Sequence record: LC739533.1
Reading direction: 5' to 3' (one strand)
From: Escherichia phage phiWec179
DNA length: 64,000 nt
The translations under genes were made by a program, and so were the position numbers. Under the pieces are notes generated by a model. The model worked only from the letters and a program-made list of their open reading frames with translations. It ran no database searches and was not told the origin of the DNA. How positions within the stretch are numbered: the first letter of the stretch is position 1; the number at the start of each line of letters is the position of its first letter. This document shows positions 1,948-59,624 of this stretch, piece after piece.

Positions 1948-3015
1948 TTGACTACCATGATCCGCCTTGCTACACTGTATTTATTAACTAAGGAGGAAAT
2001 TATGGGCGTGATTAAAGGTTGGGACATTCAGAAGAAAGAATGTGAAGAAGTGGCAAGACCAGGTATTACTGTTCTTGGATTTGTTGAACCGTGGAATGGT
2101 GCACATACCAAACTGATGCTGAAATGTGAGAAGCATGGGGAATGGAATACAACCTCCATCAACAACTTCAAAAAGAATGGTTCTGGTTGTAATGGTTGTA
2201 GAGCGGATATATGTGGTGCAAGAGCAGAAGGGAATAGCTTTGCAAGTAAAAATGCTATCTCAGATGAGCAACACATTAAGGATTTCTTGGCTACCGGATT
2301 GTTTGCAGAGGGGACAACCTTCGTCAATACAGGTGTGAAAACAAAAGGTAATCACAACTGCGTGTGGAAAGTAAGTTGCCCTGTTTGTGCTGTGGATGTA
2401 TATTCTCAAGCTGGTTTATGTGATGGTAGTTTTGAAGGTCTGACTACACACCTTAAGGCTGGAAAGGTTCCTTGTCGTTGCTCTCCACGTCATTGCTATT
2501 CTAAAGACCAATGGTTGTTTAGATTTCAGTTAATGTGTGAAGAAAAAGGTTATACTTTCATCAAGGCCATCTACGAAGGGGAAGCATACTCTCATGGAGA
2601 TGTTGAGTATGCTTGTCCAGAACACGGCTCACAACGCATGACTGTGAAGAACCTCATGTCAGGTAAAGGTTGTCCAGAGTGTGCCAATAAAACACAACAG
2701 TTCTGTTATATCAATGAAGTGTATGATGAAGATAATAATCTCTGCGCTCTTAAATTTGGAATTGCCAATGATGCTGAACGTAGGATCAAAGGTCAGAACT
2801 CGAAGAATGCTTTCACAATGCAACAGAAAGCTGTCTACTTCTTTGATGATATCAAGTCGTGTCGAGCAGCAGAAAGGAAGTGTTTGAAGATGTTGAAGTG
2901 CGGTGTTGTGAATAAATTTCAATTGCAGGATGGACACACAGAAACAACCCATCTGGACAATTACGAAATTATTGAGGCTATTTACGAAAGTTTTGGAGGG
3001 GTGTTACAGAAATGA
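1948..3015 (+). CDS. Cys-rich zinc-ribbon protein with C-terminal T5orf172/GIY-YIG-like domain
   Basis: Repeated C-x-x-C/C-P-E-H-G/C-P-E-C pairs; C-terminal LKFGIANDAERRIKG resembles the KIGxT..RL core of T5orf172 domain; opposite strand to surrounding tail genes. Confidence 0.45.
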   Translation: MTTMIRLATLYLLTKEEIMGVIKGWDIQKKECEEVARPGITVLGFVEPWNGAHTKLMLKCEKHGEWNTTSINNFKKNGSGCNGCRADICGARAEGNSFASKNAISDEQHIKDFLATGLFAEGTTFVNTGVKTKGNHNCVWKVSCPVCAVDVYSQAGLCDGSFEGLTTHLKAGKVPCRCSPRHCYSKDQWLFRFQLMCEEKGYTFIKAIYEGEAYSHGDVEYACPEHGSQRMTVKNLMSGKGCPECANKTQQFCYINEVYDEDNNLCALKFGIANDAERRIKGQNSKNAFTMQQKAVYFFDDIKSCRAAERKCLKMLKCGVVNKFQLQDGHTETTHLDNYEIIEAIYESFGGVLQK

Positions 3016-5811: not shown

Positions 5812-6291
5812 TTATTGAATGGTCAGTGCAGAGATAGAGTTAAGAACACTCATACCTACACCAACTTCATTACGTAACAGGCTTGCATCTTTCAGACCGA
5901 TAACCCATTGGTTCTCTGTAATCATTTCGCCCATGGTGTCTTCAGGTTGAGACTGAATCCAACCAATGGTGCTAATGTAATAGCCACGAGGATCTTCCAG
6001 ATAAACGCTGAATGCTACTTGACGAGTAGAATACATTGTTTGAGCATAAGTTGCAAGAACTTCGTTCGCTGGAGATGTACGTTGCAGAGAAATAGTCATG
6101 GTGCCGAGACGGTTGCGGCTAAGAGCCAGAGAAACATCGCCATCAGTACCAGCATATGGGTTAATAATATCGTTGGCTTTTGCGATTACAATTTTAGTGT
6201 CGGTTGCAAAACCCCACGGCTCCCATCCACCCAGGGACAGAACGATTTGGGAAGGATCATAGGCCATTACGCCAGTAAGCATTTTATCCAA
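5812..6291 (-). CDS. Tail tube protein (tentative)
   Basis: 159 aa ORF downstream of sheath candidate, followed by strong terminator; size and position typical of contractile-tail tube. Confidence 0.5.
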   Translation of the reverse strand: MDKMLTGVMAYDPSQIVLSLGGWEPWGFATDTKIVIAKANDIINPYAGTDGDVSLALSRNRLGTMTISLQRTSPANEVLATYAQTMYSTRQVAFSVYLEDPRGYYISTIGWIQSQPEDTMGEMITENQWVIGLKDASLLRNEVGVGMSVLNSISALTIQ

Positions 6292-6337
6292 TTTGGATCT
6301 CCTTTAGGGATAAGGCGAGGTTGCCCCCGCCAAATTA

Positions 6338-7711
6338 TTAGTTTGCAGTACGGTTGGTCAGGACGTGAACCTGAACCTTAACGTAATGGAAGAATCCTGC
6401 GTAAACGTATTCAATCTTCATGCCGTCAACCAGACGCTGATTAATCTGCGAATCAGTCATGTCAGCACGAGAAGGAAGGTAAACGATAGGCTTCAGGTCA
6501 ACACGCAGTCCAGTTTCTTCTGAAACAACCACTTCGTTAGAAATAGAACCGTTCAGAATACCAACTTGGATCGGGTTAGCCAGAACCGCTTGTTTAATCA
6601 GAGCCAGACCATTGGAAGTAGCACGAACACCACCACCCAACATTGACTGCTGTTTGAACAGAGTGAACAGAGATTCTTCGGTACGAGCTTTGAACCACAG
6701 AGCGTGAACTACGTAGTCAGCAAAGAAACCGTTAACCATCAGACCATCGCGGTAGAACAGAGTTGCGTGTTCTTTACGGTAGATGTTACCATTCTGTTGA
6801 ACAATGTTATTTTCCGCAGTCTGACCAAGCTTCTCGATTTCAACTCCAACCAGAGTTTTACCGTGTAGAGTGGTAGTACCAGGCTGTGCAGAGCAGATAG
6901 AACCAACTACGGCAGCTTCTGGGAATACAGAGTCCGCGTCGCTCATCCACAAGGCGAAACAGGTGTTGACGTAACCGAGGTCATTCAAACGCTCAAGAAC
7001 GTTGTCTTCGGCTTTAGTAGTGATACCAACGTCTGAACTGGAGAAGAAGTATACTTTATCATTCTCTTCTACCCAAGCAGCTACATCAAGAATATCTTCA
7101 ACAGCGTGGGAGTCAGACAGAACCCAGAACCAGCTACTATCGATATCGTGCAGAGCGGCGATATCTTCGGTAATGCCGTTAGCGTAGACGGTTTCTTTAG
7201 CGAAGCCGTTTGCATCCAGAGAAGCGTATTTGCCTACAACTGGAGAAACAGTGATCACAGCACCATCGTTAGCAACGGTAAACAGACCACCATAAACTAC
7301 GTCTGCATTGATCATTTCTGTCAGACCAACAACGATTTCTTGTGCTGTTGCAGTGTCGTCAGCAATGAATTTGAAATCTTTCTTGTTCTTGCCTTCTTTG
7401 ATAGTGACAACATATGTTGCACTGTCTTCAACTGCTGGGGTCAGGGTAAAGTTTGTTACTTCACGCTTACCAACAATCACTTGACTTGGTGCGAATAATC
7501 CGTTAAACAGTTTAACTGCCATGATATAGGCTGGATCATTAACACCGTAACCCGCTTCCAGAAGTGCGTCAGAAGAGGTGTAATATTCAATCGCGTTACC
7601 AGTGACAGTCTGACCAGTAAGGATCAGGGGAATGTCAAACTGGGTTTCACGGATTGATGTAGCTCCGTACAGTAAAGTTACGGTTGCTACCTTTTCACGA
7701 AAAGTTGCCAT
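6338..7711 (-). CDS. Tail sheath protein (tentative)
   Basis: 457 aa ORF preceding tube gene; size and order as in P2/Mu-like sheath-tube-chaperone-TMP modules. Confidence 0.5.
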   Translation of the reverse strand: MATFREKVATVTLLYGATSIRETQFDIPLILTGQTVTGNAIEYYTSSDALLEAGYGVNDPAYIMAVKLFNGLFAPSQVIVGKREVTNFTLTPAVEDSATYVVTIKEGKNKKDFKFIADDTATAQEIVVGLTEMINADVVYGGLFTVANDGAVITVSPVVGKYASLDANGFAKETVYANGITEDIAALHDIDSSWFWVLSDSHAVEDILDVAAWVEENDKVYFFSSSDVGITTKAEDNVLERLNDLGYVNTCFALWMSDADSVFPEAAVVGSICSAQPGTTTLHGKTLVGVEIEKLGQTAENNIVQQNGNIYRKEHATLFYRDGLMVNGFFADYVVHALWFKARTEESLFTLFKQQSMLGGGVRATSNGLALIKQAVLANPIQVGILNGSISNEVVVSEETGLRVDLKPIVYLPSRADMTDSQINQRLVDGMKIEYVYAGFFHYVKVQVHVLTNRTAN

Positions 7712-35534: not shown

Positions 35535-36152
35535 ATGAAGATAGTTTGTGATTGGGATCTGGTGGTTGCTCCACTGGATGTTGCTTGGCTGGAATGGTTG
35601 GTTAAAGTTAGTGGAGATTGTGTAGGCTTCTCCGAAGCTGTCAAGAATGTTGACTACGATCTTACTAAATACTTCCCAGGTTTCCGTGAGAAGTTTAACA
35701 TCGATCCTTACGGCTTTCTGGATAATCCCCATCTCTATGACACGATGGGATGTATCAAACCTATGGCTGACTTCTTAGAAGGTATTGTGAAAGAGGGCGA
35801 TAATGCACTTATTGCAAGTGTGACTAAAGGTGGACACCTTAGCTCAAAACACAAACATGTTTTAAGAACTTTGCCAACCATTGATTTTGGTAAAGGTTCT
35901 GGTAACGGTTTCTTTGCCACAAAAGAAAAATACCTGTTGCCTTGTGATATTGCCATAGATGATAGGGCAGAAAACCTGTTGTATTTTCCAGATCATGTTG
36001 TTAAGATTTATTACAATACGATGTATAAAGATTTGTATTTGGAAGAATTAAAAAAGAAACCAAACGTAGTTGTCACGGGTTTGTACAATCAAGCAGAAAC
36101 CTGTTGGCAGGTTTATTCAATGTTAAAAGAACGAGGAGAAATTAATGTCTAA
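35535..36152 (+). CDS. HAD-superfamily hydrolase, possible 5'-deoxynucleotidase
   Basis: N-terminal CDWDLVV (DxDxV motif I-like) and downstream IDD motif; located just upstream of thyX. Confidence 0.35.
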   Translation: MKIVCDWDLVVAPLDVAWLEWLVKVSGDCVGFSEAVKNVDYDLTKYFPGFREKFNIDPYGFLDNPHLYDTMGCIKPMADFLEGIVKEGDNALIASVTKGGHLSSKHKHVLRTLPTIDFGKGSGNGFFATKEKYLLPCDIAIDDRAENLLYFPDHVVKIYYNTMYKDLYLEELKKKPNVVVTGLYNQAETCWQVYSMLKERGEINV

Positions 36153-37134
36153 TATCAGTGCACAAGTCATCGCCCAATCCATCAACGAAGAAGGACAGAT
36201 GATCACAACTTTCGAACTGGAATATCCACGCATCATCCATTCGGAACTGATGACACACCGCCTATTCTCCCGAAACGCTGCTTCAAGCCGCGCTATTCCC
36301 GTCAAGACTTTGATTGAGATGGTTCGCAACGAACCTGCGGCACCTGTTCGATTTGGTCAACACCAACCTGGGATGCAGGATCAAGGTGTAGAGTATGATG
36401 CTCTCATTGGGGTAGGTTATTCGAGTCGTGAGTGGTGGAATTTAGCTGCACTTAGTGCGGCAAACTTTGCAGAACAAATGGCGGAAGCTGGTTACGCGAA
36501 GCAGGTTTGTAATCGCCTTCTTGAACCATTCCAAAAAATGAAGACGGTTCTGACAGCAACCGAATATGAAAACTTCTGGTGGCTACGTGATGATGCTGAT
36601 GCTGATCCGACTATTGAAGCTTTAGCCAAAATTATGTTTGAAGCCTATGAAGCTTCTACTCCAGAACTACTGGCTCCAGGTCAATGGCATACGCCTTACG
36701 TAGATCATGTCTACGAGAACATTGGTTTGGAAGGTGATGATGTTTGGGTATTCAGTGGGTATAGCACTACAGATGAAAATGGCAATACTATCATGCTGTC
36801 GCTGGAAGAAGCACTTGCAATCTCTTCTTCTTGTTGCGCACAAGTGAGCTATCGTCGTCTGAATGCAACTAAAGATAAAGCTTTGGACATTTATGGACGT
36901 TTGCTTACCGGACGTAAAGTTCACGCTTCCCCTTTTGAACATCAGGCAACCCCAATGAAAAAAATGGATTTGTCAGGCTTAAAACGACAGGAGCATGGTG
37001 TTAATATTCCTCCGTTCCCGATTTCTTGGGAACCAGGCGTTACTCATGTAGATCGTAATGGTCAATTCTGGTCGGGGAATATGAAGGGTTGGGTACAACA
37101 TCGTCAACTTTTAGACAATCATACTAAATGGTGA
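36145..37134 (+). CDS. thyX: Flavin-dependent thymidylate synthase ThyX
   Basis: ThyX signature THRLFSRNAASSRAIP (RHR...SxR). Confidence 0.8.
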   Translation: MSNISAQVIAQSINEEGQMITTFELEYPRIIHSELMTHRLFSRNAASSRAIPVKTLIEMVRNEPAAPVRFGQHQPGMQDQGVEYDALIGVGYSSREWWNLAALSAANFAEQMAEAGYAKQVCNRLLEPFQKMKTVLTATEYENFWWLRDDADADPTIEALAKIMFEAYEASTPELLAPGQWHTPYVDHVYENIGLEGDDVWVFSGYSTTDENGNTIMLSLEEALAISSSCCAQVSYRRLNATKDKALDIYGRLLTGRKVHASPFEHQATPMKKMDLSGLKRQEHGVNIPPFPISWEPGVTHVDRNGQFWSGNMKGWVQHRQLLDNHTKW

Positions 37135-37911: not shown

Positions 37912-40152
37912 GTGATTCGATACGTTACTAAATCAAATGGTAAGACAGAAGAGTTCAATCCTGAAAAACTGCGTAAATGGTCTGAATTTGCAGCAGGGAA
38001 ACTGAACTGGTCGGAAATTGAATTAGAAGCTGTGAAACGTTGTTACGATGGTGTGTCTACTCGTGATTTACATAAAGCTATGATCGCTGCGTGTATTGAT
38101 AAGAAGACTCAAGCGTACAGTGATATGGCAGGTCGATTGCTTCTCGGTATGATTTACAAACAGGCTCACGGGGGATACCACAGTATCCCTTCCCTGTACA
38201 CTTTCTACCAAGATATGGTGAAGCGTGGACATTGGGCCAAGATGGACTATACCGAAGAAGAAATCAAAGAGATTGGTAAGATTGTCAAACATAACAAGAA
38301 TCTAACCTACGGTTATTCTGTTCTTCGTCAGATGGCGGATAAATACTTGGTTCGTGATGCTGTGAATGATGTTGTTCACGAGTCACCGCAATTCCTGTTT
38401 ATTGGTGTGGCAATGCGTGTTATGGAGATCCAGCCTAAAGATCGTCGTATCAACGATATCAAAAAGCTGTACACATACGTAAGTGATCTTCAGATTAACT
38501 TACCATCTCCTTATCTGACAACGTTACGTACTCCGATCAAAGGTAGCGCGTCTTGTTGTTTATTCCGTGCAGACGATACAGCAGAGTCTTTGGCTATTGC
38601 AAACTATCTGGCACACGAATATACGTTGAATAATGCAGGGATTGGTGTTAACCTCCAAACTCGTGCAACTGGACAGGGTGTTAAGAACAACCGTATCGTT
38701 CATGGTGGTCTTCTCCCTTACCTCAAGTGGATGGAAGATAGCGTAGGAGCTTCTAAACAAGCGAGTCGTGGAGGTAGTGCAACGGTTACGTTCACAATCT
38801 TGGAGCCAGATTTTGAAGATCTGATTCGACTGAAGAACCCAACCACTCCGATCGATAAGCGTGTTGATAAGCTGGATTACTCTGTTGTTGTAAACCGCTC
38901 CTTCCTTCGCCGTGCGGCTAAAGGTGAAGAGTGGATGCTTGTGAGCTGTGACGAAGCACCGGAACTTTACGAAGCATTGTACAAAAGTGAAGAAGAGTTC
39001 GATGCGGTCTACGATAAAGTTAGTCGCCGTCGCATCAAAAAGAAAATTGTTAAGGCTCGTGACCTGTTGACTGAAATCATTGTTCAACGTGCAGAAACTG
39101 GACGTATTTATATGTTCTTCGCTGACAACGTAAACAATCACAGTCCTTTCCTGGATACTGTGTATCAGTCAAACTTATGTCAGGAGATCTTTTTACCTAC
39201 TAAAGCGTTCCATAAAATGACGGATCTCTTTACTGGTGAAAACACAGAAGATCAAGAATTGGCTTTATGCTTCTTGTCCTCTATTGTTGCTGGGCGCGTT
39301 ACGCCGGAGCAATATGAAGATGTTGCGTATTATACTGTATTGACGATTGATAACGTTATTGAGACGATGGAATATCCGTTCAAACATAACGAGATCACAG
39401 CTAAGGCTCGCCGCTCTATCGGCGTAGGTATTACAAACCTTGCACATTACTTGGCAAGCAACTTTGTAACCTATTCTGATCCTTATGCGAAGAAGCTGAT
39501 GCATGAATTAGCAGAACGTCATTACTTCTGGTTGGCACAAGCCTCTCTGCGCTTGGCGAAAGAGAAAGGTAATGCCGAGTGGATGGATAAAACTAAGTGG
39601 CCTCAAGGTTGGCTCCCTATTGACACCTACGCTAAAGCAGTAGATACTATTGGGGACTTTGAACTGAAGCTGGATTGGGAAGGCTTACGTGCTGGTATCA
39701 TTGAACAAGGTGGTATCCGTAACAGTGTGCTTGCAGCAGTGGCCCCGAACGAATCAAGTAGCTTGGTGAGTAATACGACCAACTCACTCTACCCTGTACG
39801 TGACACGATCATGTACAAACAGAGTCAGAAAGGTAACGTACTGTTTATCGTACCAGATTACGAAAAACTGAAAATGTTCTATCAGTCGGCGTGGGATACC
39901 CCGTCTAAAGATATTGCCGAGATGTATGGACTCTTCACTAAGTTTACGGATCAGGGTATCTCCTGTGATGCTTGGTTAGATTATTCCAAAATGGAAGGTG
40001 GACGTTTATCAGTGAAAGCCGAGATGCAATTTATCTTAACATTTGCAAAGCTTGGTGGTAAATCTCTTTACTACCTGAACAGCCGAACCAAATCAGCGGA
40101 ATCTATGGCCCAAGAAGATTCTGATGGTGGTTGTGAAGCTTGTAAAATGTAG
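37912..40152 (+). CDS. nrdA: Ribonucleoside-diphosphate reductase alpha subunit (class I)
   Basis: 746 aa; N-terminal ATP-cone (IRYVTKSNGKTEEFNPEKL), paired with adjacent R2; GTG start after GGGAGGAG RBS. Confidence 0.85.
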   Translation: MIRYVTKSNGKTEEFNPEKLRKWSEFAAGKLNWSEIELEAVKRCYDGVSTRDLHKAMIAACIDKKTQAYSDMAGRLLLGMIYKQAHGGYHSIPSLYTFYQDMVKRGHWAKMDYTEEEIKEIGKIVKHNKNLTYGYSVLRQMADKYLVRDAVNDVVHESPQFLFIGVAMRVMEIQPKDRRINDIKKLYTYVSDLQINLPSPYLTTLRTPIKGSASCCLFRADDTAESLAIANYLAHEYTLNNAGIGVNLQTRATGQGVKNNRIVHGGLLPYLKWMEDSVGASKQASRGGSATVTFTILEPDFEDLIRLKNPTTPIDKRVDKLDYSVVVNRSFLRRAAKGEEWMLVSCDEAPELYEALYKSEEEFDAVYDKVSRRRIKKKIVKARDLLTEIIVQRAETGRIYMFFADNVNNHSPFLDTVYQSNLCQEIFLPTKAFHKMTDLFTGENTEDQELALCFLSSIVAGRVTPEQYEDVAYYTVLTIDNVIETMEYPFKHNEITAKARRSIGVGITNLAHYLASNFVTYSDPYAKKLMHELAERHYFWLAQASLRLAKEKGNAEWMDKTKWPQGWLPIDTYAKAVDTIGDFELKLDWEGLRAGIIEQGGIRNSVLAAVAPNESSSLVSNTTNSLYPVRDTIMYKQSQKGNVLFIVPDYEKLKMFYQSAWDTPSKDIAEMYGLFTKFTDQGISCDAWLDYSKMEGGRLSVKAEMQFILTFAKLGGKSLYYLNSRTKSAESMAQEDSDGGCEACKM

Positions 40153-40157
40153 CAATA

Positions 40158-40181
40158 CAGGGGCTTCGGCCCCTTTTTTAT
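40158..40181 (+). terminator. Rho-independent terminator after nrdA
   Basis: AGGGGC-TTCG-GCCCCT followed by TTTTTT. Confidence 0.65.
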
Positions 40182-40193
40182 TGAGGAGCGATT

Positions 40194-40532
40194 ATGAGCA
40201 CACTTATAGTTTTACCTGGAGTAACCCCAATCTACCGACCTGGGTTTAAGCCTCTGTTGCTTTGCCCTGAAGATTTCACCCCTACTTGGTGTCACCATTA
40301 TCTTGGTGGACGTGAAATAGCTAACATGCAGATTTGGGAATCTTTTTATCCAGAAGCCACGGCTTACGCAATAACAAGAGCAAGAAGTGAAGAAACAGTG
40401 ACTGTTATACTTGGTAGAAGCGTATGGGAAGCATTAGAAGGTTTCTACCGGAGTAATGGTTTTGAGGAACAAGATATTTTAAACTTAAAAGGTTTTTGTG
40501 AAATAGTGGAGGATTTAAATGGCAGCAATTAA
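40194..40532 (+). CDS. Hypothetical protein between nrdA and nrdB
   Basis: 112 aa; RBS GGAG. Confidence 0.45.
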   Translation: MSTLIVLPGVTPIYRPGFKPLLLCPEDFTPTWCHHYLGGREIANMQIWESFYPEATAYAITRARSEETVTVILGRSVWEALEGFYRSNGFEEQDILNLKGFCEIVEDLNGSN

Positions 40533-41604
40533 TTTACATAATGAGACTTACAAAACAGGTAAATATCCGGTATTCATGGGTGAGCAATTGGGGATCTTTG
40601 ACTCAATTAATGTGACGTATCCTGAAATGCACCGTCTGTATAAACTTCAGAAAGCCCAAGATTGGGATGAGAATGAAGTGGATCTTAGTCAGACCCGTAA
40701 AGACTTTGTAGCGTGTTCAAAAAACAACTACGATGTTATGATCAAGAACTTGTCGTTCCAGTGGGAGAATGATTCTCTGGCAAAATCCATCATCACTTTG
40801 TTCTCTCCGTTTTTGAGCAACAATGAAGCATGTGCTATGATGATGAAGCAGAGTGAGATGGAAGTGCTTCACGCTCTAACTTACTCGGAGATTGTTCGCC
40901 AGTGTACTCCAAACCCTGTAGAAGTTATTGATCAGATTATGGAGAACGACAAGATCTTCAACCGTATGGGTATCATTGCAGAGATCATGGGAGAGTTGGA
41001 AGAAGCAGGTCACAAATATGCACTTGGTCTGATTGAAGCTGATGATAAACTACGTTTGCTGGTCATGAAAGGTCTGGTAGCCCTGATTGGTCTGGAAGGT
41101 ATCCAGTTTATCTCTTCTTTCTCGGCAACGTTCGCCTTGGCAGAACAGCAACTGTTTGTAGGTGCTTGTAAGCTGATTCAGAAAATCATGTTGGATGAAA
41201 TCCTGCATGTTAAAATGGACTATGCTGTCATTGATGCTCTGATGCAAGATCCTGTGTGGAAGAAGATCTACGAAGATAACATCGAAGAACTTACAACTAT
41301 TCTGGATACAGTTATCGCTCAAGAAGAGCAGTGGTGTGATTATCTGTTTAGCGAAGGACGTTTTATCGTTGGGCTGAATGCTGAACTGTCCCGTCAATGG
41401 GTGTACTTCAATGCGGCTCCAATTTATCGTCGTTTGAAGATGAAGCACAGCTTTAAATCTCCTAAACAGAACCCACTACCTTGGATGGACATTTGGTTAA
41501 ACCCAGATCAGATTCAAGCAGCGGCGCAAGAGATCCAAGTTACAGCTTACAAACTGAACTCGGCTAACAAAGATGTTTCTGATGATATGGAGTTTGACTT
41601 CTAA
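40519..41604 (+). CDS. nrdB: Ribonucleoside-diphosphate reductase beta subunit
   Basis: 361 aa, helical di-iron R2-like (EVLHALTYSEI), paired with nrdA. Confidence 0.8.
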   Translation: MAAINLHNETYKTGKYPVFMGEQLGIFDSINVTYPEMHRLYKLQKAQDWDENEVDLSQTRKDFVACSKNNYDVMIKNLSFQWENDSLAKSIITLFSPFLSNNEACAMMMKQSEMEVLHALTYSEIVRQCTPNPVEVIDQIMENDKIFNRMGIIAEIMGELEEAGHKYALGLIEADDKLRLLVMKGLVALIGLEGIQFISSFSATFALAEQQLFVGACKLIQKIMLDEILHVKMDYAVIDALMQDPVWKKIYEDNIEELTTILDTVIAQEEQWCDYLFSEGRFIVGLNAELSRQWVYFNAAPIYRRLKMKHSFKSPKQNPLPWMDIWLNPDQIQAAAQEIQVTAYKLNSANKDVSDDMEFDF

Positions 41605-41822
41605 TGAAACTTAAATGTGTAGGATTGATCGACACATTCAAAGACGTATTTGACAAAGGGGCTTCCTATGAAGCCTCGGAGTTAAAGAACGGTTTTTGTG
41701 ATGTGCATGGTAAACGTCTTAAGAAAAACGGAGAACCTTGGCTTGGTGTTATGTCTTGTGGTCATATTGTGGTTAACGGTGTTGCAAAGTTTGAAATCGT
41801 AAAGGAGGAAGATAATGAGTGA
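41604..41822 (+). CDS. Hypothetical protein
   Basis: 72 aa; ATGA overlap with nrdB stop. Confidence 0.4.
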   Translation: MKLKCVGLIDTFKDVFDKGASYEASELKNGFCDVHGKRLKKNGEPWLGVMSCGHIVVNGVAKFEIVKEEDNE

Positions 41823-41958
41823 GTTTAGTTTTTGCCCTATTTGTGGTGGTACAGGTAATGCCTTAATTAGTGCGGAGCAGTACAGCCCGTGTTGGCATTG
41901 TTCTGGTAGTGGTTTGGTAGTTGAAGAAAACAAAGAGGAGGAAAAAGATGGGGATTGA
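41815..41958 (+). CDS. Zinc-ribbon small protein (47 aa)
   Basis: CPICGGTG ... CWHCSGSG (DnaJ-like CxxCxGxG pairs); RBS AAGGAGGA; below ORF-track cutoff. Confidence 0.4.
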   Translation: MSEFSFCPICGGTGNALISAEQYSPCWHCSGSGLVVEENKEEEKDGD

Positions 41959-42274
41959 TATCGAATGGAAGATGGTGCAAGGCGCACCATATAAGAAATG
42001 GGAAGAAGTGTTTAAAGGCGATCCGCAGATTGAGGATCAATTCGATGGGGATTTCAACTGGTTTCTTTACGAAGGTATTGGGTTAGTGAGTGTCTCCCCG
42101 TGGTTTGATGCAGATCCTGAAGATTGTGTCTTTGGTATTGAACTTGCGTCAGGATGCAGCGCACGGGCAATAGATCTCACAAGCTTGGATAAAAAAGCAA
42201 ACGAGATCTATTTTGAACTGCTTAATAAGTATAATATTGAGACTGAAACGTTAGTATCACAAAACGTTTGGTAA
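41948..42274 (+). CDS. Hypothetical protein
   Basis: Start at ATG 41948 after RBS AGGAGGA. Confidence 0.4.
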   Translation: MGIDIEWKMVQGAPYKKWEEVFKGDPQIEDQFDGDFNWFLYEGIGLVSVSPWFDADPEDCVFGIELASGCSARAIDLTSLDKKANEIYFELLNKYNIETETLVSQNVW

Positions 42275-42283
42275 GGAGAACTA

Positions 42284-43276
42284 ATGCGCTATCTGGTAAC
42301 AGGTGGTCTTGGTTTTATTGGGAGCGCCGTTGTGCGCTCTCTTTGTCAAGATCCTAATAACGAAGTTTTTGTCATTGATAAAATGGGCTACGCAGCCGAT
42401 ATTGAAAATGTAGGGGATATCACTCACGCCAAACTAAGCATGACGGATTTGGCAAACGAAGCACAGGTCAAAAGTTTGGTGGTAGAATGCAACCCTGATT
42501 TCATTATTCACTTAGCGGCAGAGAGTCATGTGGACAACTCTATCAAAAATCCACGAGCTTTCATCGACTCCAATATCATCGGTACATATAATTTACTGGA
42601 AGCTGCGAGACTACTCCCAAGGAATAAGCTGAAGATGTTTGTACACGTCTCCACAGACGAAGTGTACGGCGATATGGCAGACTCTGGCGCTCCCTTTACC
42701 GAAGAGACAGCATATACTCCTTCAAGCCCGTACAGCGCGTCCAAGGCGGCTTCTGATCATCTTGTGAAAGCTTGGCACCGTACTTATGACTTGCCTGTAG
42801 TGATAACTAATTGCTCCAATAATTTTGGACCTTACCAATACCCTGAAAAATTGATTCCAAAAGTAATCACAAGCATCTTGACGAACAAAGAAATCCCAGT
42901 GTATGGTAAAGGTGATCAGGTACGAGACTGGCTTTTTGTTGAGGACCATGCACGAGCTATTCTTCAGGTAGCTTCTGGCGGCGAACCTGGACAAACTTAC
43001 AACGTAGGTACACGTAATCCTAAAACCAATATGGAGATCATCTATATGATTTGTGATTACATGGATGCCGTACACCCGCAAAGTGGAACCTACCCCTCTT
43101 CAAGTTTAATAACTTTTGTTGAAGATCGTAAAGGACATGACTTGCATTATGAAATCAACCCTGCTAAGATTGAATCTGAACTGGGTTGGAGTGCAAACTC
43201 CACATTTGAACAAGACCTTTACTCTACGATAGAGTGGTATTTAAACAACCCTCAATGGTGGAGAGAAAAGATTTAA
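42284..43276 (+). CDS. rmlB: dTDP-glucose 4,6-dehydratase
   Basis: TGGLGFIGS Rossmann motif, [10 protein letters not shown] (YxxxK) catalytic motif. Confidence 0.85.
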
Positions 43277-43284
43277 GGAGGGTT

Positions 43285-44163
43285 ATGAAAGGTATTATTT
43301 TGGCTGGAGGAAGTGGAACCCGCCTACATCCAGTAACACGCAGTGTGAGCAAGCAATTGCTCCCTGTGTATGACAAACCTATGATTTATTATCCTTTATC
43401 AGTCTTGATGTTGGCAGATATTAAGGATATCTTAATCATCACAACCCCAGGCGATCAGGAAGATTTTGAGTATCTTCTTGGAGATGGATCTATGTTTGGG
43501 ATAAAGATCACTTACGCAATGCAGTCTGAACCACGAGGTCTTGCAGATGCTTTCATCATTGGTAAAGATTTCATTGGGGAAGATTCTGTTGCCCTTATTT
43601 TAGGGGATAACTTGTTCTTCGGACAAAGTTTCGGAAAACTTCTTATCCAAGCCAGCGAAATGGTGGATGTTTGGGGTGGAGCTTGTATCTTCGGGTATCT
43701 GGTGAAAGATCCTGAACGATTCGGTGTTGTTGAGTTTGGAAGTAATCGCCAAGCTATCTCTATTGAAGAGAAACCGGAACATCCTAAATCAGACTATGCT
43801 GTCACGGGTTTGTATTTCTATGACAACTCTGTTGTTCAACGTGCATTGGAAGTAACCCCTTCCGAGCGTGGAGAACTGGAGATCACAGATATCAATCGCA
43901 GCTACCTCGAAGACAGGAAGTTACAAGTTGAAGTTCTTGGAAGAGGATTCACTTGGTTGGATACAGGGACACACGCCAGTCTAATGGAAGCAGGTCAATT
44001 CGTGCAGACTATTGAGAACTGCCAAGGATTGAAGATTGCGTGCCTGGAAGAGATCGCTTTCAAAAAAGGGTGGATTTCTTTAGAGACTTTGGTGTATCAT
44101 GGCAACTCATTGAAGAAAACAGAGTACGGGCAATATTTGTTAAAATTAGCGGAGGGTAAATGA
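43285..44163 (+). CDS. rmlA: Glucose-1-phosphate thymidylyltransferase
   Basis: [17 protein letters not shown] signature; start set to ATG 43285 after RBS AAGGAGGG. Confidence 0.85.
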
Positions 44164-44720
44164 AAATAAAAGAATTAAGTATTCCTGGTCTGGTTGTCTT
44201 TAAACCTCAAGTTTACAAAGATGATCGTGGTTACTTCACGGAGACGTTTAACGAGAAGATTTACGAAGAGGTTATTGGCAAACAAACGTTTGTTCAGGAT
44301 AACCATTCATTCTCTACTTTAGGTGTTCTTCGCGGAATGCACTTTCAAGTAAACAATCCGCAAGGTAAGCTTGTACGTTGCACACGAGGTGAAGTTTTTG
44401 ACGTGGCTGTAGATCTTCGTGAAGGTAGTCCAACCTTCGGACAATGGGAAGGTGTGATTCTTAGTGGGCGTAACAATAAACAGTTTTGGATTCCACCTGG
44501 CTTTGCACATGGTTTTGTTGTAACCTCTTATGAAGCCAACTTTGAATACAAGTGCACCAACTACTACGATCCGGCATCTGAACGTAGTTTGTTGTGGAAC
44601 GATCCTACTGTGAATATTGATTGGGGTTTTGATATGATTTTCAATGATGAGAATTTTGTACCTATCATTTCGGAAAAGGATGCACAAGCTAAAACACTGA
44701 AGGAGCTTATGGAATCATGA
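44160..44720 (+). CDS. rmlC: dTDP-4-dehydrorhamnose 3,5-epimerase
   Basis: Cupin-type RmlC pattern ([11 protein letters not shown] ... GMHFQ ... [10 protein letters not shown]). Confidence 0.85.
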
Positions 44721-45559
44721 AAACATATTTAGTATTGGGTGGTAATGGTCAATTAGGTCAGGCACTGCGTAAAGTGGTGCCGGAGAATGTGACTTTGGTG
44801 TATCCAGAAAAGCGTGTAGATATCACCAGTTTCGAAGCTGTAAGAAAAGCGATCATGGACACCCCAAATATTAACGGTGTTATCAACTGTGCGGCATACA
44901 CTGCGGTGGACAAAGCAGAGACAGATGTTGATGCAGCTATGGCTGTAAATTTACACGGGGCAGCTAATATTGCTGCCTTCTGTAAGGCTTGGGATATTGA
45001 CATGGTGCATATTTCTACTGACTATGTGTTCAACAGCGATAAACCGTTGTTCCATCAGGATGAACCCAACCCTATCAATGTTTACGGGTTATCTAAAAGT
45101 TTGGGTGAAGCTGCTGTTCGTGGTATCTACCATAAAGCTTTTATTATCCGCACGGCTTCTGTGTATAGCGAGTTTGGTAACAACTTCCTGAAGACTATGG
45201 TGTCTCGTTACAACGATGGTCAAAGAGACTTCTCGGTAGTTGCAGATCAAACATCTCGACCAACTTATGCCCCAGATTTGGCTAAGATGATTTTCCAAGT
45301 GTTGGAAACAGGATATAACACCCGTACTTTGCATTACGCTGGGAACATCACTGTTTCGTGGCACCAGTTCGCAAAAATGATATTGACACGTATGCCTGAA
45401 TCTGTTATTATACACCCGACCTCTGCTGCAACCTATAATTCGGCAGCGATGCGACCAGCAAAGTCTATACTAATTACGTCTGGTTGGAACGAACCTTCAA
45501 GCGTCGGACAAGGTATTGAAGAATCTTTAGCAGTATTACTTAATAAGGAGAGAGCATGA
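44717..45559 (+). CDS. rmlD: dTDP-4-dehydrorhamnose reductase
   Basis: LVLGGNGQLG Rossmann motif; ATGA-coupled to rmlC. Confidence 0.8.
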   Translation: MKTYLVLGGNGQLGQALRKVVPENVTLVYPEKRVDITSFEAVRKAIMDTPNINGVINCAAYTAVDKAETDVDAAMAVNLHGAANIAAFCKAWDIDMVHISTDYVFNSDKPLFHQDEPNPINVYGLSKSLGEAAVRGIYHKAFIIRTASVYSEFGNNFLKTMVSRYNDGQRDFSVVADQTSRPTYAPDLAKMIFQVLETGYNTRTLHYAGNITVSWHQFAKMILTRMPESVIIHPTSAATYNSAAMRPAKSILITSGWNEPSSVGQGIEESLAVLLNKERA

Positions 45560-45816
45560 ATTTTGTAATTTACGGCAAACCAAATTGCCAGTTCTGTGAA
45601 ATGTCCAAACAACTCTTAACTATGCGTGAAAAAGAGTTTGAATATCTGACATTAGATCAGGACTATGATTTTGAAGTGATGACTCAAGCAGTGATCGCAG
45701 CAACAGGAATTGCACCTCGCACCTTCCCGCAGATTTTTGTGGAAGAGCTTGGAGCAGTAACCCACGTAGGCGGTTTTACCGAACTGCGTGATTTCATGGC
45801 TCAAATTGCGGAGTAA
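45556..45816 (+). CDS. Glutaredoxin / NrdH-like redoxin
   Basis: 86 aa with N-terminal C-Q-F-C active-site motif. Confidence 0.6.
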   Translation: MNFVIYGKPNCQFCEMSKQLLTMREKEFEYLTLDQDYDFEVMTQAVIAATGIAPRTFPQIFVEELGAVTHVGGFTELRDFMAQIAE

Positions 45817-47315: not shown

Positions 47316-47813
47316 ATGGTACAGACAATTATAGATCGGACTGGTATTGATGAATGTTACCAAACTGGGCTTGTGAAGCCTAACGAGTTCCGACAGATTT
47401 GCGTGAATCATATTGAGAAAGAAATTGCACTAACTTTGGAGAACCTTACTCTCCGAGACAAGCTGTCAATGTTTGTGGCTTGGTGTAAAGGTGAAGATTG
47501 GTTATTGGCCCATTTTCAAGAACTTTCTGATAGTCAAGAAGGCTTATATGAATGTATAATAGGAATAGCTGGCTCCAATCCTGAACTTCTCCATTTGGAA
47601 GAAGAAGAGGCGAAGTTATTGTTCTTAAGCAACATGTTCAATCGTAAAGCATTGCTTGTTCGTGAGTGTAGTGATCTTTTAAATCATCCACTGGCGATCA
47701 CAAACGAAATACTGGTTGACAAAGAGACATTACGTGCGATAGACTATCTGCGCAAGTATGTCAACGGCGGGAAAGCAGTTCTTAAAACATTAACAGAGGA
47801 GGAAGCAGAATGA
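47316..47813 (+). CDS. Hypothetical protein
   Basis: 165 aa; ATGA-coupled to HslV-like gene. Confidence 0.45.
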   Translation: MVQTIIDRTGIDECYQTGLVKPNEFRQICVNHIEKEIALTLENLTLRDKLSMFVAWCKGEDWLLAHFQELSDSQEGLYECIIGIAGSNPELLHLEEEEAKLLFLSNMFNRKALLVRECSDLLNHPLAITNEILVDKETLRAIDYLRKYVNGGKAVLKTLTEEEAE

Positions 47814-48499
47814 CTACAATTATCGCAACCAAAAACAAGATCCTTAGCGACGGTAAAGTAACTTTCGGTGGTCGTGTAGATTCAACCAATTTCAAGAAAG
47901 TACGTAAGATTGGGGATTATCTCGTAGGTGGCGCAGGGCGTTTGACTTCGGTATTAGCTTTCTTCCAGTGGTTCGAACAGAACCTGCAATGTGAAGCGGC
48001 GCGTGAGGCAGTGCCTGGGTTGATGATCAGTTCTAACCCTGATCGTGAAGATGAAGAGTTTATTGCTCTCGTTGTTCACCCAGACGGACGTATTTTCCTG
48101 CATGAAGGTAATGATCCTACTCGTGCATACCCAATCGACGAAGAATACTACGCAGTAGGTAGTGGTTCCGATTTCGCGCTCGCAGCACTGGACGGCGGTG
48201 CTTCTCCAGAAGCTGCTATGGAGGTTGCCAAGAAGCGTGACGCATACTCCGGTGGCGAAACCTTCGTTGAAGAATTAGATGAGATCATTGAACTGACTGA
48301 CGAAGATCTCGAAAACTTCACCAAACAAGAACTGATCAACCTGCTCAAGTTTGGTGATCCTTCTGGTGAAGAAACTCCTCGTGACGTGGCAGGTGACGAG
48401 ACGGTAGAAGAAGAGGTTGCTGTAGAAAAAGACTTGACTTCTAAACCGGAAAATATTAATCTCGTAAACGTAGCGGATTTCGACAATCCCGCTGCTTAA
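47810..48499 (+). CDS. HslV-like N-terminal-threonine peptidase with acidic C-terminal extension
   Basis: After Met: TTIIATKNK (Thr nucleophile position), KKVRKIGD, GGAGRLTS, AVGSGSDFALAAL, collinear with HslV; extra acidic tail. Confidence 0.55.
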   Translation: MTTIIATKNKILSDGKVTFGGRVDSTNFKKVRKIGDYLVGGAGRLTSVLAFFQWFEQNLQCEAAREAVPGLMISSNPDREDEEFIALVVHPDGRIFLHEGNDPTRAYPIDEEYYAVGSGSDFALAALDGGASPEAAMEVAKKRDAYSGGETFVEELDEIIELTDEDLENFTKQELINLLKFGDPSGEETPRDVAGDETVEEEVAVEKDLTSKPENINLVNVADFDNPAA

Positions 48500-48544: not shown

Positions 48545-48982
48545 ATGTTGAACGTTCCTGTTAAATTCGTCGATAGCTGTGTTAATGCTTACCAACAAAC
48601 TTGTAAACGTGCCTCAAACTGTTTGCAGTCTTTGATTCAAACGCGGTACGTGATCCAAAAGAAAAGAAAGTGGTTTGGTAAGGATTCTTATAGTGTTAAT
48701 GCGTTTGGGGAGTATCAACTCCAATATGACGATAACATGCAGCACATCTTAGAGTTTTTACTGATAAAAGATAAAATCTCCCCTGCGGATTACCAGTTAC
48801 TTAAATTCTACGATCAGAGTTTGTCTATTGAGGAAGTTATTGAAGATATCCTTTCTCGTAAGACAGATAAGAACACTATTGGTATTACAAACTTAGAGAT
48901 GCAATTGCTTAATGAGATCTTTTTGTTTGTGGAAGATGAGTCTGTAACTAAGGAGGAGCTTTTAAATGGCTTTAAGCTATGA
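48545..48982 (+). CDS. Hypothetical protein
   Basis: 145 aa; RBS AGAGGAG. Confidence 0.45.
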   Translation: MLNVPVKFVDSCVNAYQQTCKRASNCLQSLIQTRYVIQKKRKWFGKDSYSVNAFGEYQLQYDDNMQHILEFLLIKDKISPADYQLLKFYDQSLSIEEVIEDILSRKTDKNTIGITNLEMQLLNEIFLFVEDESVTKEELLNGFKL

Positions 48983-49475
48983 TCGTCCAGAGTCCGATTA
49001 CTATCCGACTCCGCAAAAAGCGATTAACTCGTTATTTAGCATTATTGATTTTAAAAATTTGAAAGAGGAAGGATTTACATTTGCAGAACCGTGTAAAGGA
49101 CAAGCAGCGGCTATTTACCGTCACTTCCCTGAAGGTTCTCAGTATTGTGAGCTTGAAGAAGGTAAAGATTATTTTAGTCACGTATGGGAAAATCGTCCCG
49201 ACATTATAATCACTAACCCCCCGTTCAAGCTGGCATTAGAGTTCTTGGAAAAGAGCTTGAAAGAAGCAGACGTATCAGTCTACCTGCTTCGCTTGGGATT
49301 CCTTGAGTCAAAGAAACGTCGAGCGTTTCATCAAGAAAACCCACCTACGAATTTGATTGTACTCTCCGAACGTCCTTCGTTCGTAGCGGGTGGAACAGAT
49401 AAGACAGCGTATGCTTGGTACGTATACGATCCAAAACAAATTTTGGGTCTAACTCAACCATTTTATTTCGTTTAA
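48966..49475 (+). CDS. DNA N6-adenine methyltransferase, small phage Dam-like
   Basis: N-terminal DYYPTP and catalytic NPPF motif in 169 aa. Confidence 0.55.
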   Translation: MALSYDRPESDYYPTPQKAINSLFSIIDFKNLKEEGFTFAEPCKGQAAAIYRHFPEGSQYCELEEGKDYFSHVWENRPDIIITNPPFKLALEFLEKSLKEADVSVYLLRLGFLESKKRRAFHQENPPTNLIVLSERPSFVAGGTDKTAYAWYVYDPKQILGLTQPFYFV

Positions 49476-55840: not shown

Positions 55841-56239
55841 ATGGGTTGGTGTGATCAGTCACAAAGTTACTTCAAAGTGACACATGTGGATCTCAACAAG
55901 GCAAGAGTGAAGCTGTTGAGTATTGAAAAAGAAACAGCAGCTATTGACAAACGCCTCCGAGAGAGTAAAGTGGTAATCACTTCTTGGTTCGGACTGAAAC
56001 GTAAAGTCCTCACGCAGCGAGAGCATGTAATTAAAAATATGCATGGTTGGGCTTGGTTCCACGACATGGCAAAACACCTGGGGTACATTTCTACTGAAGA
56101 ACACGACCTCTTGGAGCTACGTTATCGCCTTCCAGATGTAGAAGATTTAGATTTGTGGATCAGTTCCGAACAAATCTTCTTAACCGAGAGCGATTGGAAG
56201 AAAGTCAATATTTGTCTTAAATGGAGGGAGAATGAGTAA
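55841..56239 (+). CDS. Hypothetical protein
   Basis: 132 aa; coupled start. Confidence 0.45.
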   Translation: MGWCDQSQSYFKVTHVDLNKARVKLLSIEKETAAIDKRLRESKVVITSWFGLKRKVLTQREHVIKNMHGWAWFHDMAKHLGYISTEEHDLLELRYRLPDVEDLDLWISSEQIFLTESDWKKVNICLKWRENE

Positions 56240-56915
56240 AGTAGTTTTATCAACATTTGATGGATCTGGGATCATGGTACTTCGTTACGCAGAAGCGGGA
56301 CATAAATGCTATTGTGTAAATGCTGACGAAGGTGATCACGGGGCTTATGAAGTTCGCATGGAACATCCTAACATCACTTACGTGAACGCATGGATTGATT
56401 CCAACTTCAACCCTGAAGATTACGGTATTCCTAAGCCAGATATTATCTTTGGCTTCCCTCCATGTACCATGCTTGCTGGTTGCGGTAGTAAGCACGAACG
56501 TAGCGCAGAAGAGTTGGAAGAAGCTTTGGCTAACATTCGTATCGTGGAAGCTTTAGGAAATAAATACAACGTTCCGTGGATGATTGAGAATCCGGTGGGT
56601 AAACTGTCAACATTGTGGCGTAAACCGGATTTCTATTTCGATCCTTACGAATATGGCGGATATCTGTTTGATGAAGAAGGCAGCTTCCACCCTAAAATGC
56701 CTACCCGTGACGGTTACACAAAGAAAACCTGTATTTGGCATGGCAATGGTTTTGTTAAGCCTGTGAAGAAGCCTGTGGAACATATTGGTTGCTTCTGGGG
56801 CTGGAAAAGTTTAGGCGGAGCAAGTGCGAAAACAAAGCAACTCCGATCGTTAACTGCTCGCGGTTTTGCTCGTGCTGTGTTTTTATCTAACAACCTTTTA
56901 GATAAGGAGGAATGA
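56232..56915 (+). CDS. DNA cytosine-5 methyltransferase-like protein (compact)
   Basis: Motif I-like FDGSG, motif IV GFPPCT (Pro-Cys), motif VI ENPVG, in canonical order. Confidence 0.5.
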   Translation: MSKVVLSTFDGSGIMVLRYAEAGHKCYCVNADEGDHGAYEVRMEHPNITYVNAWIDSNFNPEDYGIPKPDIIFGFPPCTMLAGCGSKHERSAEELEEALANIRIVEALGNKYNVPWMIENPVGKLSTLWRKPDFYFDPYEYGGYLFDEEGSFHPKMPTRDGYTKKTCIWHGNGFVKPVKKPVEHIGCFWGWKSLGGASAKTKQLRSLTARGFARAVFLSNNLLDKEE

Positions 56916-57638: not shown

Positions 57639-58133
57639 ATGTTTCAAGTAGAAATTCATGTGCACAACAGTTGTTCAAATTGCGAAACTTGTGGTTACAA
57701 TAGTTCAACCATGATCACTGTTAGCGGAGACTTAGGACATGCCAAGTTTGGCGAAGTCGCAAGCTGCTTCAGCGGAGAGGATGCAGATTGGCATGATATT
57801 GCTTTGTGGCTATGCGGAAGACTGAATGTAAATTGTAAAGACTTCCCTGAACTGTTGAGCCGAAATCTTATTGATAGTCGGGAACAAGCCTACAATATTT
57901 ATGCCGCTTCTGTTTATGTTGATCATAAATGGGTAGAAGATGAAGAAGCTGAACGTTTGCTGCGCCTCTACTACGAAGCAGAGGAAGCTTATGATAACTA
58001 TTATAGCATGTCCAACATTCTACGCTTGTTTGCAGAGTTTGATATTTACTTTGAAGTGAGTTATTCTGAAGAGGAAGTGTATGATTTTGATGACGATGAT
58101 TACGAGGAGGATGAAGAATGCCAAGACGATTAA
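57639..58133 (+). CDS. Hypothetical Cys-containing acidic protein
   Basis: Start set to ATG 57639 after RBS GGGAGGAAA; C-terminal poly-acidic tail. Confidence 0.4.
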   Translation: MFQVEIHVHNSCSNCETCGYNSSTMITVSGDLGHAKFGEVASCFSGEDADWHDIALWLCGRLNVNCKDFPELLSRNLIDSREQAYNIYAASVYVDHKWVEDEEAERLLRLYYEAEEAYDNYYSMSNILRLFAEFDIYFEVSYSEEEVYDFDDDDYEEDEECQDD

Positions 58134-58918
58134 TAGTGATCAGCGGTGCTGGTCTAAGCGCCGATAGCGGTGTACGTACTTTCCGCACTGATACAGATAG
58201 CGGGAAAGCTTTGTGGGATGAATACGACCTTTCTGAAGTGTGCGATATTTTCAATTTCCGTGCTGGCTACCAGCAAGAACAATGTGTTCCTGGCGCTGCT
58301 GGTGGATTAGATGCAGAGGGATACAACCTCTACCGTAAAACTCACGACTTCTACAATAAACGTCGCGTAGAGATGGATAGTGTGTCTCCTAACGCTGCGC
58401 ATTACCAGATCGCAGAGTGGTTCCAAGAGTACGGCTGCGATCGTGTTATCAACATCACAACAAACGTAGATGATCTTCTGGAACAAGCAGGGGTTGTTCA
58501 TGAAGATGTTCTGCATGTTCACGGCTTCCTGCCTGAAGTGATTGTAGACAATAGAATCATCAAGGATGTTGGTTATGCTGCTATTGATGTAGATGATTAC
58601 AAGTATGTGAAGCCCAATGTAGTGTTCTTTGGGGAGACTGCCCCACTGTATAACGATATGTACCACATCTTAGACGGCTTGACGGCTCAAGATATGGTGG
58701 TTGTAGTGGGCTGCTCTAATCAAGTGATCAACTTCAACTGGGATTTGTTCCCAGCCCTCAACATAGGAACAAAGATGGTCGTAGTTAATCCTGGGGTTAA
58801 TTACGAAGAAACACTTCTCTATGAAGATCGTGGAGTTTTTGTTTACCGAGAAAAAGCTGCAACAGCCTTCAGTAATGAAGGTTTCATTAAAATGATCGAA
58901 GACCACTTAAACAAATAA
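58118..58918 (+). CDS. Sir2-family (sirtuin-like) NAD-dependent protein
   Basis: ISGAGLSADSGVRTFR, VLHVHG, VVFFGE; no obvious Zn-binding Cys tetrad. Confidence 0.6.
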   Translation: MPRRLIVISGAGLSADSGVRTFRTDTDSGKALWDEYDLSEVCDIFNFRAGYQQEQCVPGAAGGLDAEGYNLYRKTHDFYNKRRVEMDSVSPNAAHYQIAEWFQEYGCDRVINITTNVDDLLEQAGVVHEDVLHVHGFLPEVIVDNRIIKDVGYAAIDVDDYKYVKPNVVFFGETAPLYNDMYHILDGLTAQDMVVVVGCSNQVINFNWDLFPALNIGTKMVVVNPGVNYEETLLYEDRGVFVYREKAATAFSNEGFIKMIEDHLNK

Positions 58919-59580: not shown

Positions 59581-59624
59581 CATGTGCTGCGGTAGGATCA
59601 GTATCCTACAGCACGAATTGTTTG

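Follow-up and report, generated by a model that had tools for sequence, protein, structure and literature searches.

A predicted dTDP-L-rhamnose pathway kept by Stephanstirmvirinae coliphages and its possible use as sugar donor for virion glycosylation

The question of why a lytic coliphage should make rhamnose goes back to phAPEC8 (GenBank JX561091), and it is raised again by Escherichia phage phiWec179 (LC739533.1), in which we analysed a stretch of 64,000 nucleotides (nt; hereafter the window) that carries the deoxythymidine diphosphate (dTDP)-L-rhamnose genes rmlB, rmlA, rmlC and rmlD at positions 42284-45559. The operon is 100% identical to that of Escherichia phage phiWec186 (LC739535.1, Stephanstirmvirinae), where it is annotated as rffG, glucose-1-phosphate (G1P) thymidylyltransferase, rfbC and rfbD, and the sole base of the window that differs from LC739535.1 is at position 59611 (G versus A). 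The same operon had already been annotated in phAPEC8, ESCO5, phages from Danish wastewater and phages Bas60-62 of the BASEL collection, and Olsen 2020 (PMC7552041) discussed it and suggested the rhamnosylation of hydroxymethylated nucleotides. Both the phage rml operon and the idea of DNA glycosylation were in print before the present analysis. New here are a comparison of the junction between nrdB and the glutaredoxin gene grx with that of the sister subfamily, a pattern of gene loss in which rmlC and rmlD are always kept whereas rmlA and rmlB are sometimes lost, a distant glycosyltransferase cassette that co-occurs with rmlD, and the genomic context in which relatives of these transferases are found. 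The answer that we tentatively favour is that the phage supplies its own rhamnose donor for glycosylation of its virion.

We judged the identity of the four proteins by the equivalog cut-offs of NCBIfam, which all of them passed. RmlB, the dTDP-glucose 4,6-dehydratase (42284-43276, 330 amino acids (aa); all four genes lie on the plus strand), scored 428.8 bits against a cut-off of 365.1 (TIGR01181), while RmlA, the G1P thymidylyltransferase (43285-44163, 292 aa from its ATG), reached 448.6 bits against 360.65 (TIGR01207) and RmlC, the dTDP-4-dehydrorhamnose 3,5-epimerase (44160-44720, 186 aa), 246.1 bits against 155.75 (TIGR01221). The dTDP-4-dehydrorhamnose reductase RmlD (44717-45559, 280 aa) passed narrowly, with 244 bits against 224.05 (TIGR01214). 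The corresponding E-values, from 1e-73 to 1e-135, lie far outside what chance would give, and the Pfam assignments were concordant. In addition, comparison with enzymes in the PDB showed that the functional residues are kept. RmlB matched the Salmonella enterica enzyme (1g1a, E 6e-110), with the GxxGxxG NAD-binding site, STDEVYG and the YxxxK motif (YSASK) conserved, and RmlA matched 4ho0 (E 2.5e-123) and contains the GGSGTRL nucleotide-binding loop. In RmlC, the catalytic His, Lys, Tyr and Asp positions of the Pseudomonas aeruginosa enzyme (2ixi, E 6e-62) are conserved and fall in LRGMHFQ, QGKLVR, EYKCT and WNDP, while RmlD (3sc6, E 1.4e-49) keeps its Thr/Tyr/Lys triad in STDYVF and YGLSK.

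An earlier, sequence-only reading of this DNA had recognised the signature motifs of RmlB, RmlA, RmlC and RmlD and had named profile searches as a possible source of refutation. The motifs are present, the catalytic residues align, and all four open reading frames (ORFs) scored as Rml enzymes, which confirms that this lytic phage encodes every enzyme of the dTDP-L-rhamnose pathway. RmlA would join glucose-1-phosphate and dTTP to give dTDP-glucose, which RmlB would convert to dTDP-4-keto-6-deoxyglucose; epimerization by RmlC and reduction by RmlD would then yield dTDP-L-rhamnose. The four genes are predicted to form a working pathway that the phage itself maintains.

Compared with bacterial RmlABCD (RfbABCD), the chemistry of the phage enzymes should be the same, given the equivalog scores and the retained catalytic residues. 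The setting differs, in that the genes belong to a lytic phage and run in the order B-A-C-D, as opposed to rfbD, rfbA, rfbB and rfbC in the E. coli annotation under the best matches. The phage proteins also fail the host-type enterobacterial sub-family models for RfbB/RffG, RfbA and RfbD (PRK10084, 397 versus 649; PRK10217, 388 versus 698; PRK15480, 394 versus 588; PRK09987, 107 versus 308). A recent capture from E. coli was considered and rejected, the best E. coli DNA match covering no more than 42% of the operon, at 64% identity. The ratio of nonsynonymous to synonymous substitution rates (dN/dS), determined against phiWec188, phAPEC8 and a phi92-like phage, was 0.03-0.34 across the four rml genes (0.04-0.06 for rmlB and 0.03-0.11 for rmlA), similar to thyX (0.12-0.15) and nrdA; all four genes are under purifying selection. 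The operon, its position and the flanking gene order are shared with phAPEC8, phi92 and Bas60-62, and even Klebsiella phage 05F01, whose RmlD is only 37% identical, has retained the order thyX-nrdA-nrdB-rmlBACD-grx-lysin-phoH. Relative to phAPEC8 the operon is a mosaic, with RmlB and RmlA 94-97% identical (dS 0.6-0.7) and RmlC and RmlD only 63-65% identical (dS 1.5-2.7), which suggests that the rmlBA half was recently exchanged between genera. From these comparisons, the rml genes appear to be functional and ancient.

The two halves of the operon also differ in how they are retained. In the relatives compared, rmlC and rmlD were always kept, whereas rmlA and rmlB were sometimes lost. Phage ESCO37 lacks both rmlA and rmlB (PMC10269720). 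In phage Eryne, a 436-aa ORF annotated as 'nucleotide-sugar epimerase' (6086-7396) is an in-frame fusion left by a deletion, in which RmlB residues 1-310 run into a C-terminal portion of RmlA that begins at about residue 140-160 and has lost the nucleotide-binding loop; RmlC and RmlD of the same phage are both intact, RmlC matching its counterpart in phage EmilieFrey at every residue and RmlD being identical at 272 of 276 positions. Among 'Escherichia' phage records, RmlA was found in 87 and RmlD in 106. On the host side, every one of 5426 E. coli genomes carried at least one rmlB/rmlA-like locus (median one per genome), namely the rffG and rffH genes for enterobacterial common antigen (ECA). 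Every E. coli performs the RmlA and RmlB steps to make ECA, and many strains lack RmlC and RmlD. A host that supplies the first two steps and often not the last two would explain the pattern of loss, and we infer that the indispensable contribution of the phage is the rhamnose-specific half, RmlC and RmlD. That these two are the indispensable enzymes points to dTDP-L-rhamnose itself as what the phage needs, rather than to a manipulation of the dTTP pool.

A sugar donor calls attention to the enzymes that might use it. The sequence-only reading had seen no glycosyltransferase in the window, had left the acceptor unknown and had pointed to the remainder of the genome as the place to look. Our Pfam scans, which covered most non-structural ORFs of at least 165 aa and ten further selected ORFs, agree with it in finding no glycosyltransferase in the window, with ORFs shorter than 165 aa or longer than 620 aa and the majority of the head and tail genes outside their scope. 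About 70 kb upstream of the operon, at LC739535.1 24479-27619, we found four adjacent glycosyltransferase genes, two of GT-A type and two of GT-B type. They encode GT1 (187 aa, phrog_14179), GT2 (227 aa, phrog_2456; weak matches to Glycos_transf_2 and TAGT) and the paralogues GT3 and GT4 (315 and 314 aa, both phrog_7162 and both matching Glyco_trans_1_2), with PHROGs E-values of 1e-74 to 1e-138, and their Bas61 orthologues are annotated in BASEL as two glycosyltransferases and two 'disaccharide synthases'. The cassette is followed by a conserved 92-aa ORF (phrog_4240) and then by the gene for the primase-helicase; in Klebsiella phage 05F01 it contains only one GT-B copy. Among 'Escherichia' phage records, GT1, GT2 and GT4 were each found in 105-106, which equals the count for RmlD, and the divergent Klebsiella members carry them as well. 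No Vequintavirinae record with RmlD or GT4 was among the matches listed.

Two further observations concern these genomes. Several near-identical Stephanstirmvirinae genomes bear Campylobacter, Pseudomonas, Acinetobacter or Serratia as the host in their database entries (Campylobacter phage B15 and Pseudomonas phage PsgM04F are examples), and such host labels may be unreliable. Outside the window, LC739535.1 13656-23162 holds a Ter-associated module encoding a HAD-like hydrolase, PRTase_3 (PF15610), Macro, TerC, TelA, vWA-TerF and TerD, followed by a Hydrolase_2 cell-wall hydrolase; a 2024 paper describes the function of this module in phi92-like phages as unknown.

The genomic context of relatives of the cassette enzymes in other phages indicates a possible acceptor. 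By profile comparison, the GT2 family matched gp99 of Mycobacterium phage Saal (hhalign probability 99.1%, E 8e-19, 194 columns, with FDDDCYP common to both), and about 500 mycobacteriophage records were matched in the GT2 search. Saal gp99 shares its operon with Saal gp101, which is 86% identical to gp110 of phage Che8, a protein reported to be essential for capsid glycosylation (PMC12363180, PMC11256854). The GT4 family matched gp6 of Streptomyces phage KimJongPhill over its full length (probability 99.9%, E 4e-34). This gene is preceded by genes for an RmlB-like 4,6-dehydratase (29% identical to the RmlB described here, E 4e-47; TIGR01181, 203 bits) and a methyltransferase, and the trio lies just upstream of the terminase and portal genes. 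In an uncultured 36-kb phage contig, genes for homologues of GT2 (probability 98.5%, E 2e-15) and of GT4 immediately precede those for TerS, TerL, portal, MuF, protease and major capsid protein. A further GT4 homologue is the direct neighbour of a terminase gene, and in Cellulophaga phage phi18:2 a GT1 homologue lies between the portal and capsid genes. A GT2-like paralogue among small early ORFs of Klebsiella phage KP13-26 was uninformative for function. A bacterial GT4 homologue, P0024, was also considered as part of a three-gene transferase set and rejected; the set fits in size, but the neighbouring genes are not homologous to GT1 or GT2.

It is mainly because relatives of the transferases stand repeatedly beside head genes, and once beside a 6-deoxyhexose enzyme, that we favour glycosylation of the virion. 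We infer dTDP-rhamnose to be the donor for the transferases, and a virion protein to be the acceptor. The dTDP-L-rhamnose would most likely feed the cassette at LC739535.1 24479-27619, with virion proteins as the likeliest acceptors by analogy with mycobacteriophage Che8 and the giant viruses, and an rml operon carried by the phage would guarantee the donor in any host. The glycosylation system of Che8 (gp108-110; Freeman 2023, as cited in PMC11256854 and PMC12363180) resembles this arrangement in its phage-encoded transferase cassette, and GT2 is a remote homologue of a protein from a Che8-type locus. The two differ in that the host here is Gram-negative and in that the present phage, whose glycosylation system is putative, has its own sugar-nucleotide pathway. 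The chlorovirus PBCV-1 and Mimivirus, like the present phage, combine virus-encoded synthesis of a nucleotide-rhamnose with several transferases.

Several observations weigh against glycosylation of the virion. Our literature search found no report of glycosylated coliphage virions. The Ser/Thr-rich C-terminal tails that are glycosylated in Che8-type systems, on capsid or tail-tube subunits, have no counterpart in the present phage as judged from its major capsid protein and its decoration, tube and sheath proteins. Che8 gp108, gp109 and gp110 showed no significant similarity to the GT2 and GT4 families when profiles were compared. Within the subfamily, the transferase genes sit not with the head genes but in the replication module, beside the primase-helicase and DNA polymerase genes, and the co-occurrence of rml and transferase genes is a clade-level trait whose instances are phylogenetically non-independent. 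Finally, remodelling of the host envelope stays plausible, with ECA and the lipopolysaccharide (LPS) core as receptors and an ECA precursor as the compound on which RmlC and RmlD act.

The sequence-only reading had proposed glycosylation of virion or host surface structures. The virion part agrees with the direction in which the transferase relatives point; the host-surface part stands as a rival, which we consider unlikely. On that account, the phage would turn the ECA precursor dTDP-4-keto-6-deoxyglucose into dTDP-rhamnose for transfer to lipid-linked intermediates (for example undecaprenyl-pyrophosphate-linked N-acetylglucosamine, Und-PP-GlcNAc) or to the LPS core. The outcome would be the masking or depletion of ECA or LPS-core receptors of infected cells, leading to superinfection exclusion or to a smaller loss of progeny on debris. 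Consistent with this, phi92-like phages depend on wecB (ECA) and waaC/waaG (LPS core), as was found for Bas61 (Maffei 2021, PMC8594841), and the conservation of rmlC and rmlD as the core of an operon in which rmlA and rmlB are dispensable fits an action on an intermediate made by the host. Against it, a short lytic cycle leaves little time for the replacement of surface glycans already present, and the scanned ORFs yielded no candidate for a flippase, polymerase, ligase or membrane GT-C enzyme. Likewise, a seroconversion system of the GtrABC type was not apparent, with no GtrB-like bactoprenol transferase or membrane GT-C enzyme in the scanned ORFs, a search in which GtrA-sized proteins (about 120 aa) fall below the size filter and most ORFs of the structural module lie outside the scans. 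Moreover, Mycobacterium, Streptomyces and Cellulophaga phages, whose hosts have neither ECA nor enterobacterial LPS, also encode homologous transferases, and there the genes lie next to head genes.

Glycosylation of the virion has also to be set against a role in DNA metabolism, for which the position of the operon matters. The genes from thyX to grx all lie on the plus strand. Upstream are a divergent ThyX-like thymidylate synthase of 329 aa (36145-37134; PF02511, 35.8 bits; phrog_85, E 4e-105), which reached only 28.7 bits in TIGR02170 against a cut-off of 87.9 and in which the usual RHR motif reads THR, and nrdA (37912-40152; ORF and LC739535.1 annotation). The start of the ThyX homologue is overlapped by a gene for an NT5C-like 5'-deoxynucleotidase (35535-36152). 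Then follow nrdB (40519-41604, annotated in LC739535.1), whose product is 50% identical to NrdB of Vequintavirus, and about 680 nt with three small ORFs (41604-42274; 72, about 47 and about 108 aa, the last being phrog_15453). Downstream of rmlD lies the glutaredoxin gene grx (45556-45816; PF00462, 41.8 bits). The rml genes are therefore embedded in a thyX-nrdA-nrdB...grx block, as the sequence-only reading had stated, and glutaredoxin does follow immediately; the operon does not stand directly after nrdB, from which the three small ORFs separate it. The same reading had described the genes as overlapping, which holds for rmlA/rmlC, rmlC/rmlD and rmlD/grx, each joined by a 4-nt ATGA overlap, and not for rmlB/rmlA. 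A ribosome-binding site (AAGGAG) precedes rmlB, and the ATG of rmlA at 43285 lies 8 nt past the rmlB stop codon behind AAGGAGG. A GTG at 43234 was rejected as the rmlA start in favour of this ATG, which has the ribosome-binding site and agrees with the GenBank annotation.

Scanning for promoters and terminators gave counts at chance level, the only convincing element being a strong terminator-like hairpin directly after nrdA (40159-40174, AGGGGCTTCGGCCCCT followed by a T-run); none was seen between nrdB and grx. It follows from the spacing and the lack of terminators that the rml genes are probably co-transcribed with nrdB and grx, and a single transcription unit may run from nrdB through the small ORFs and rmlBACD to grx. 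In Vequintavirus Bas58, of the sister subfamily, grx comes directly after nrdB, and both the rml genes and the small ORFs are absent from the junction. Instead of the 'fusion' to the module for deoxynucleoside triphosphate (dNTP) supply that had been proposed, the rml genes and small ORFs appear to have been inserted between nrdB and grx when these two were already adjacent, with nrdB as the upstream flank of the insertion and grx as the original downstream neighbour of nrdB.

Sugar hypermodification of the phage DNA, the first of the roles put forward in the sequence-only reading and also the suggestion of Olsen 2020, is on balance disfavoured, and we regard it as improbable. It supposes a rhamnose-containing sugar on a modified base, by analogy with glucosylated hydroxymethylcytosine (hmC) in phage T4, where alpha- and beta-glucosyltransferases act on hmC. 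As in T4, the transferases are encoded among genes for replication and nucleotide metabolism, with the operon inside the dNTP-supply block and the cassette abutting primase-helicase and DNA polymerase genes. In addition, GT2 gave a sub-threshold match to the TET-associated glycosyltransferase family PF20691 (E 0.002, 18.5 bits versus 27.5) and a weak, likewise sub-threshold match over about 60 residues to phrog_842, the beta-glucosyl-HMC-alpha-glucosyltransferase (E 3e-7), and the divergence of the ThyX homologue could be read in the same sense. In contrast to T4, the donor would be a dTDP-sugar, and the scanned ORFs (most of the non-structural ones from 165 to 620 aa and selected others, with several ORFs of the replication region, such as LC739535.1 6668-8146, 10553-12367, 28532-30313 and 33022-36183, outside the scans) contained no ThyA-type hydroxymethylase and no TET/JBP enzyme, only the divergent ThyX. 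The absence of the operon from the Bas58 junction makes its position weak evidence for a DNA role. Furthermore, phi92-like phages, which are relatives of phiWec186 with the same operon, were found to be 'exceptionally susceptible' to restriction-modification despite 'a putative dTDP glycosylation machinery' (Maffei 2021, PMC8594841).

A purely metabolic role, in which the operon tunes dTTP, dTDP-sugar or UDP-glucose pools or sustains host glycan synthesis without any relation to the cassette, seems to us slightly more improbable still. Its location and probable co-transcription with nrdAB, thyX and grx would suit such a role, and dysregulated RmlA depletes thymidine nucleotides and perturbs division and O-antigen synthesis in E. 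coli (PMC12773781). Yet natural loss affects RmlA, the enzyme that draws on dTTP, whereas RmlC and RmlD are kept under purifying selection; the operon also co-occurs tightly with three transferase families, and in the unrelated Streptomyces phage an RmlB-like gene is paired with a transferase of the GT4 family. That the transferases and dTDP-rhamnose decorate a small metabolite of the neighbouring Ter module (PRTase, HAD phosphatase, Macro, TerC, TelA, TerD) is highly improbable, since adjacency, with the cassette directly downstream of the module in phiWec186 and in a Justusliebigvirus contig, is the sole basis for it and the transferase homologues of other phages occur without Ter genes.

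Other genes of these genomes were noted in passing. A 227-aa protein (window 56232-56915) recalls C5-cytosine DNA methyltransferases in its motifs FDGSG and GFPPC and has no Pfam match at E <=0.001, and a 169-aa protein with the motif IIITNPPF (window 48966-49475), also without a Pfam match, has a Bas61 orthologue annotated as a putative N6-adenine methyltransferase. Proteins related to NAD or ADP-ribose, namely Sir2 (cobB; window 58118-58918), NADAR (L003 38474-39001) and a Macro domain protein (LC739535.1 15142-15624), may have counter-defence roles. An HslV/proteasome-like protein with an acidic C-terminal tail and a weak Proteasome match (window 47810-48499) is annotated in relatives as a proteasome component or HslV. 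The only plus-strand gene in the minus-strand tail module (window 2002-3015) encodes repeats with CapR homology, and a second CapR-repeat protein is encoded at record positions 149545-150561.

Taken together, it is possible, if rather doubtful, that Stephanstirmvirinae build rhamnose-containing virion glycans by means of a self-contained rmlBACD pathway and three to four transferases of their own. If so, this would be, as far as we have found, the first report of virion glycosylation among phages that infect Gram-negative bacteria, and a bacteriophage counterpart of the autonomous glycosylation of giant viruses. Common broad-host-range phages that have been proposed for therapy (the phAPEC8, phi92 and phiWec types) would then carry a glycan coat, with a bearing on antibody recognition and pharmacokinetics; a coat of this kind changes how antibodies bind and neutralise mycobacteriophages. 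Should the target instead be ECA or LPS, the operon would represent a new receptor-masking strategy for a lytic phage.

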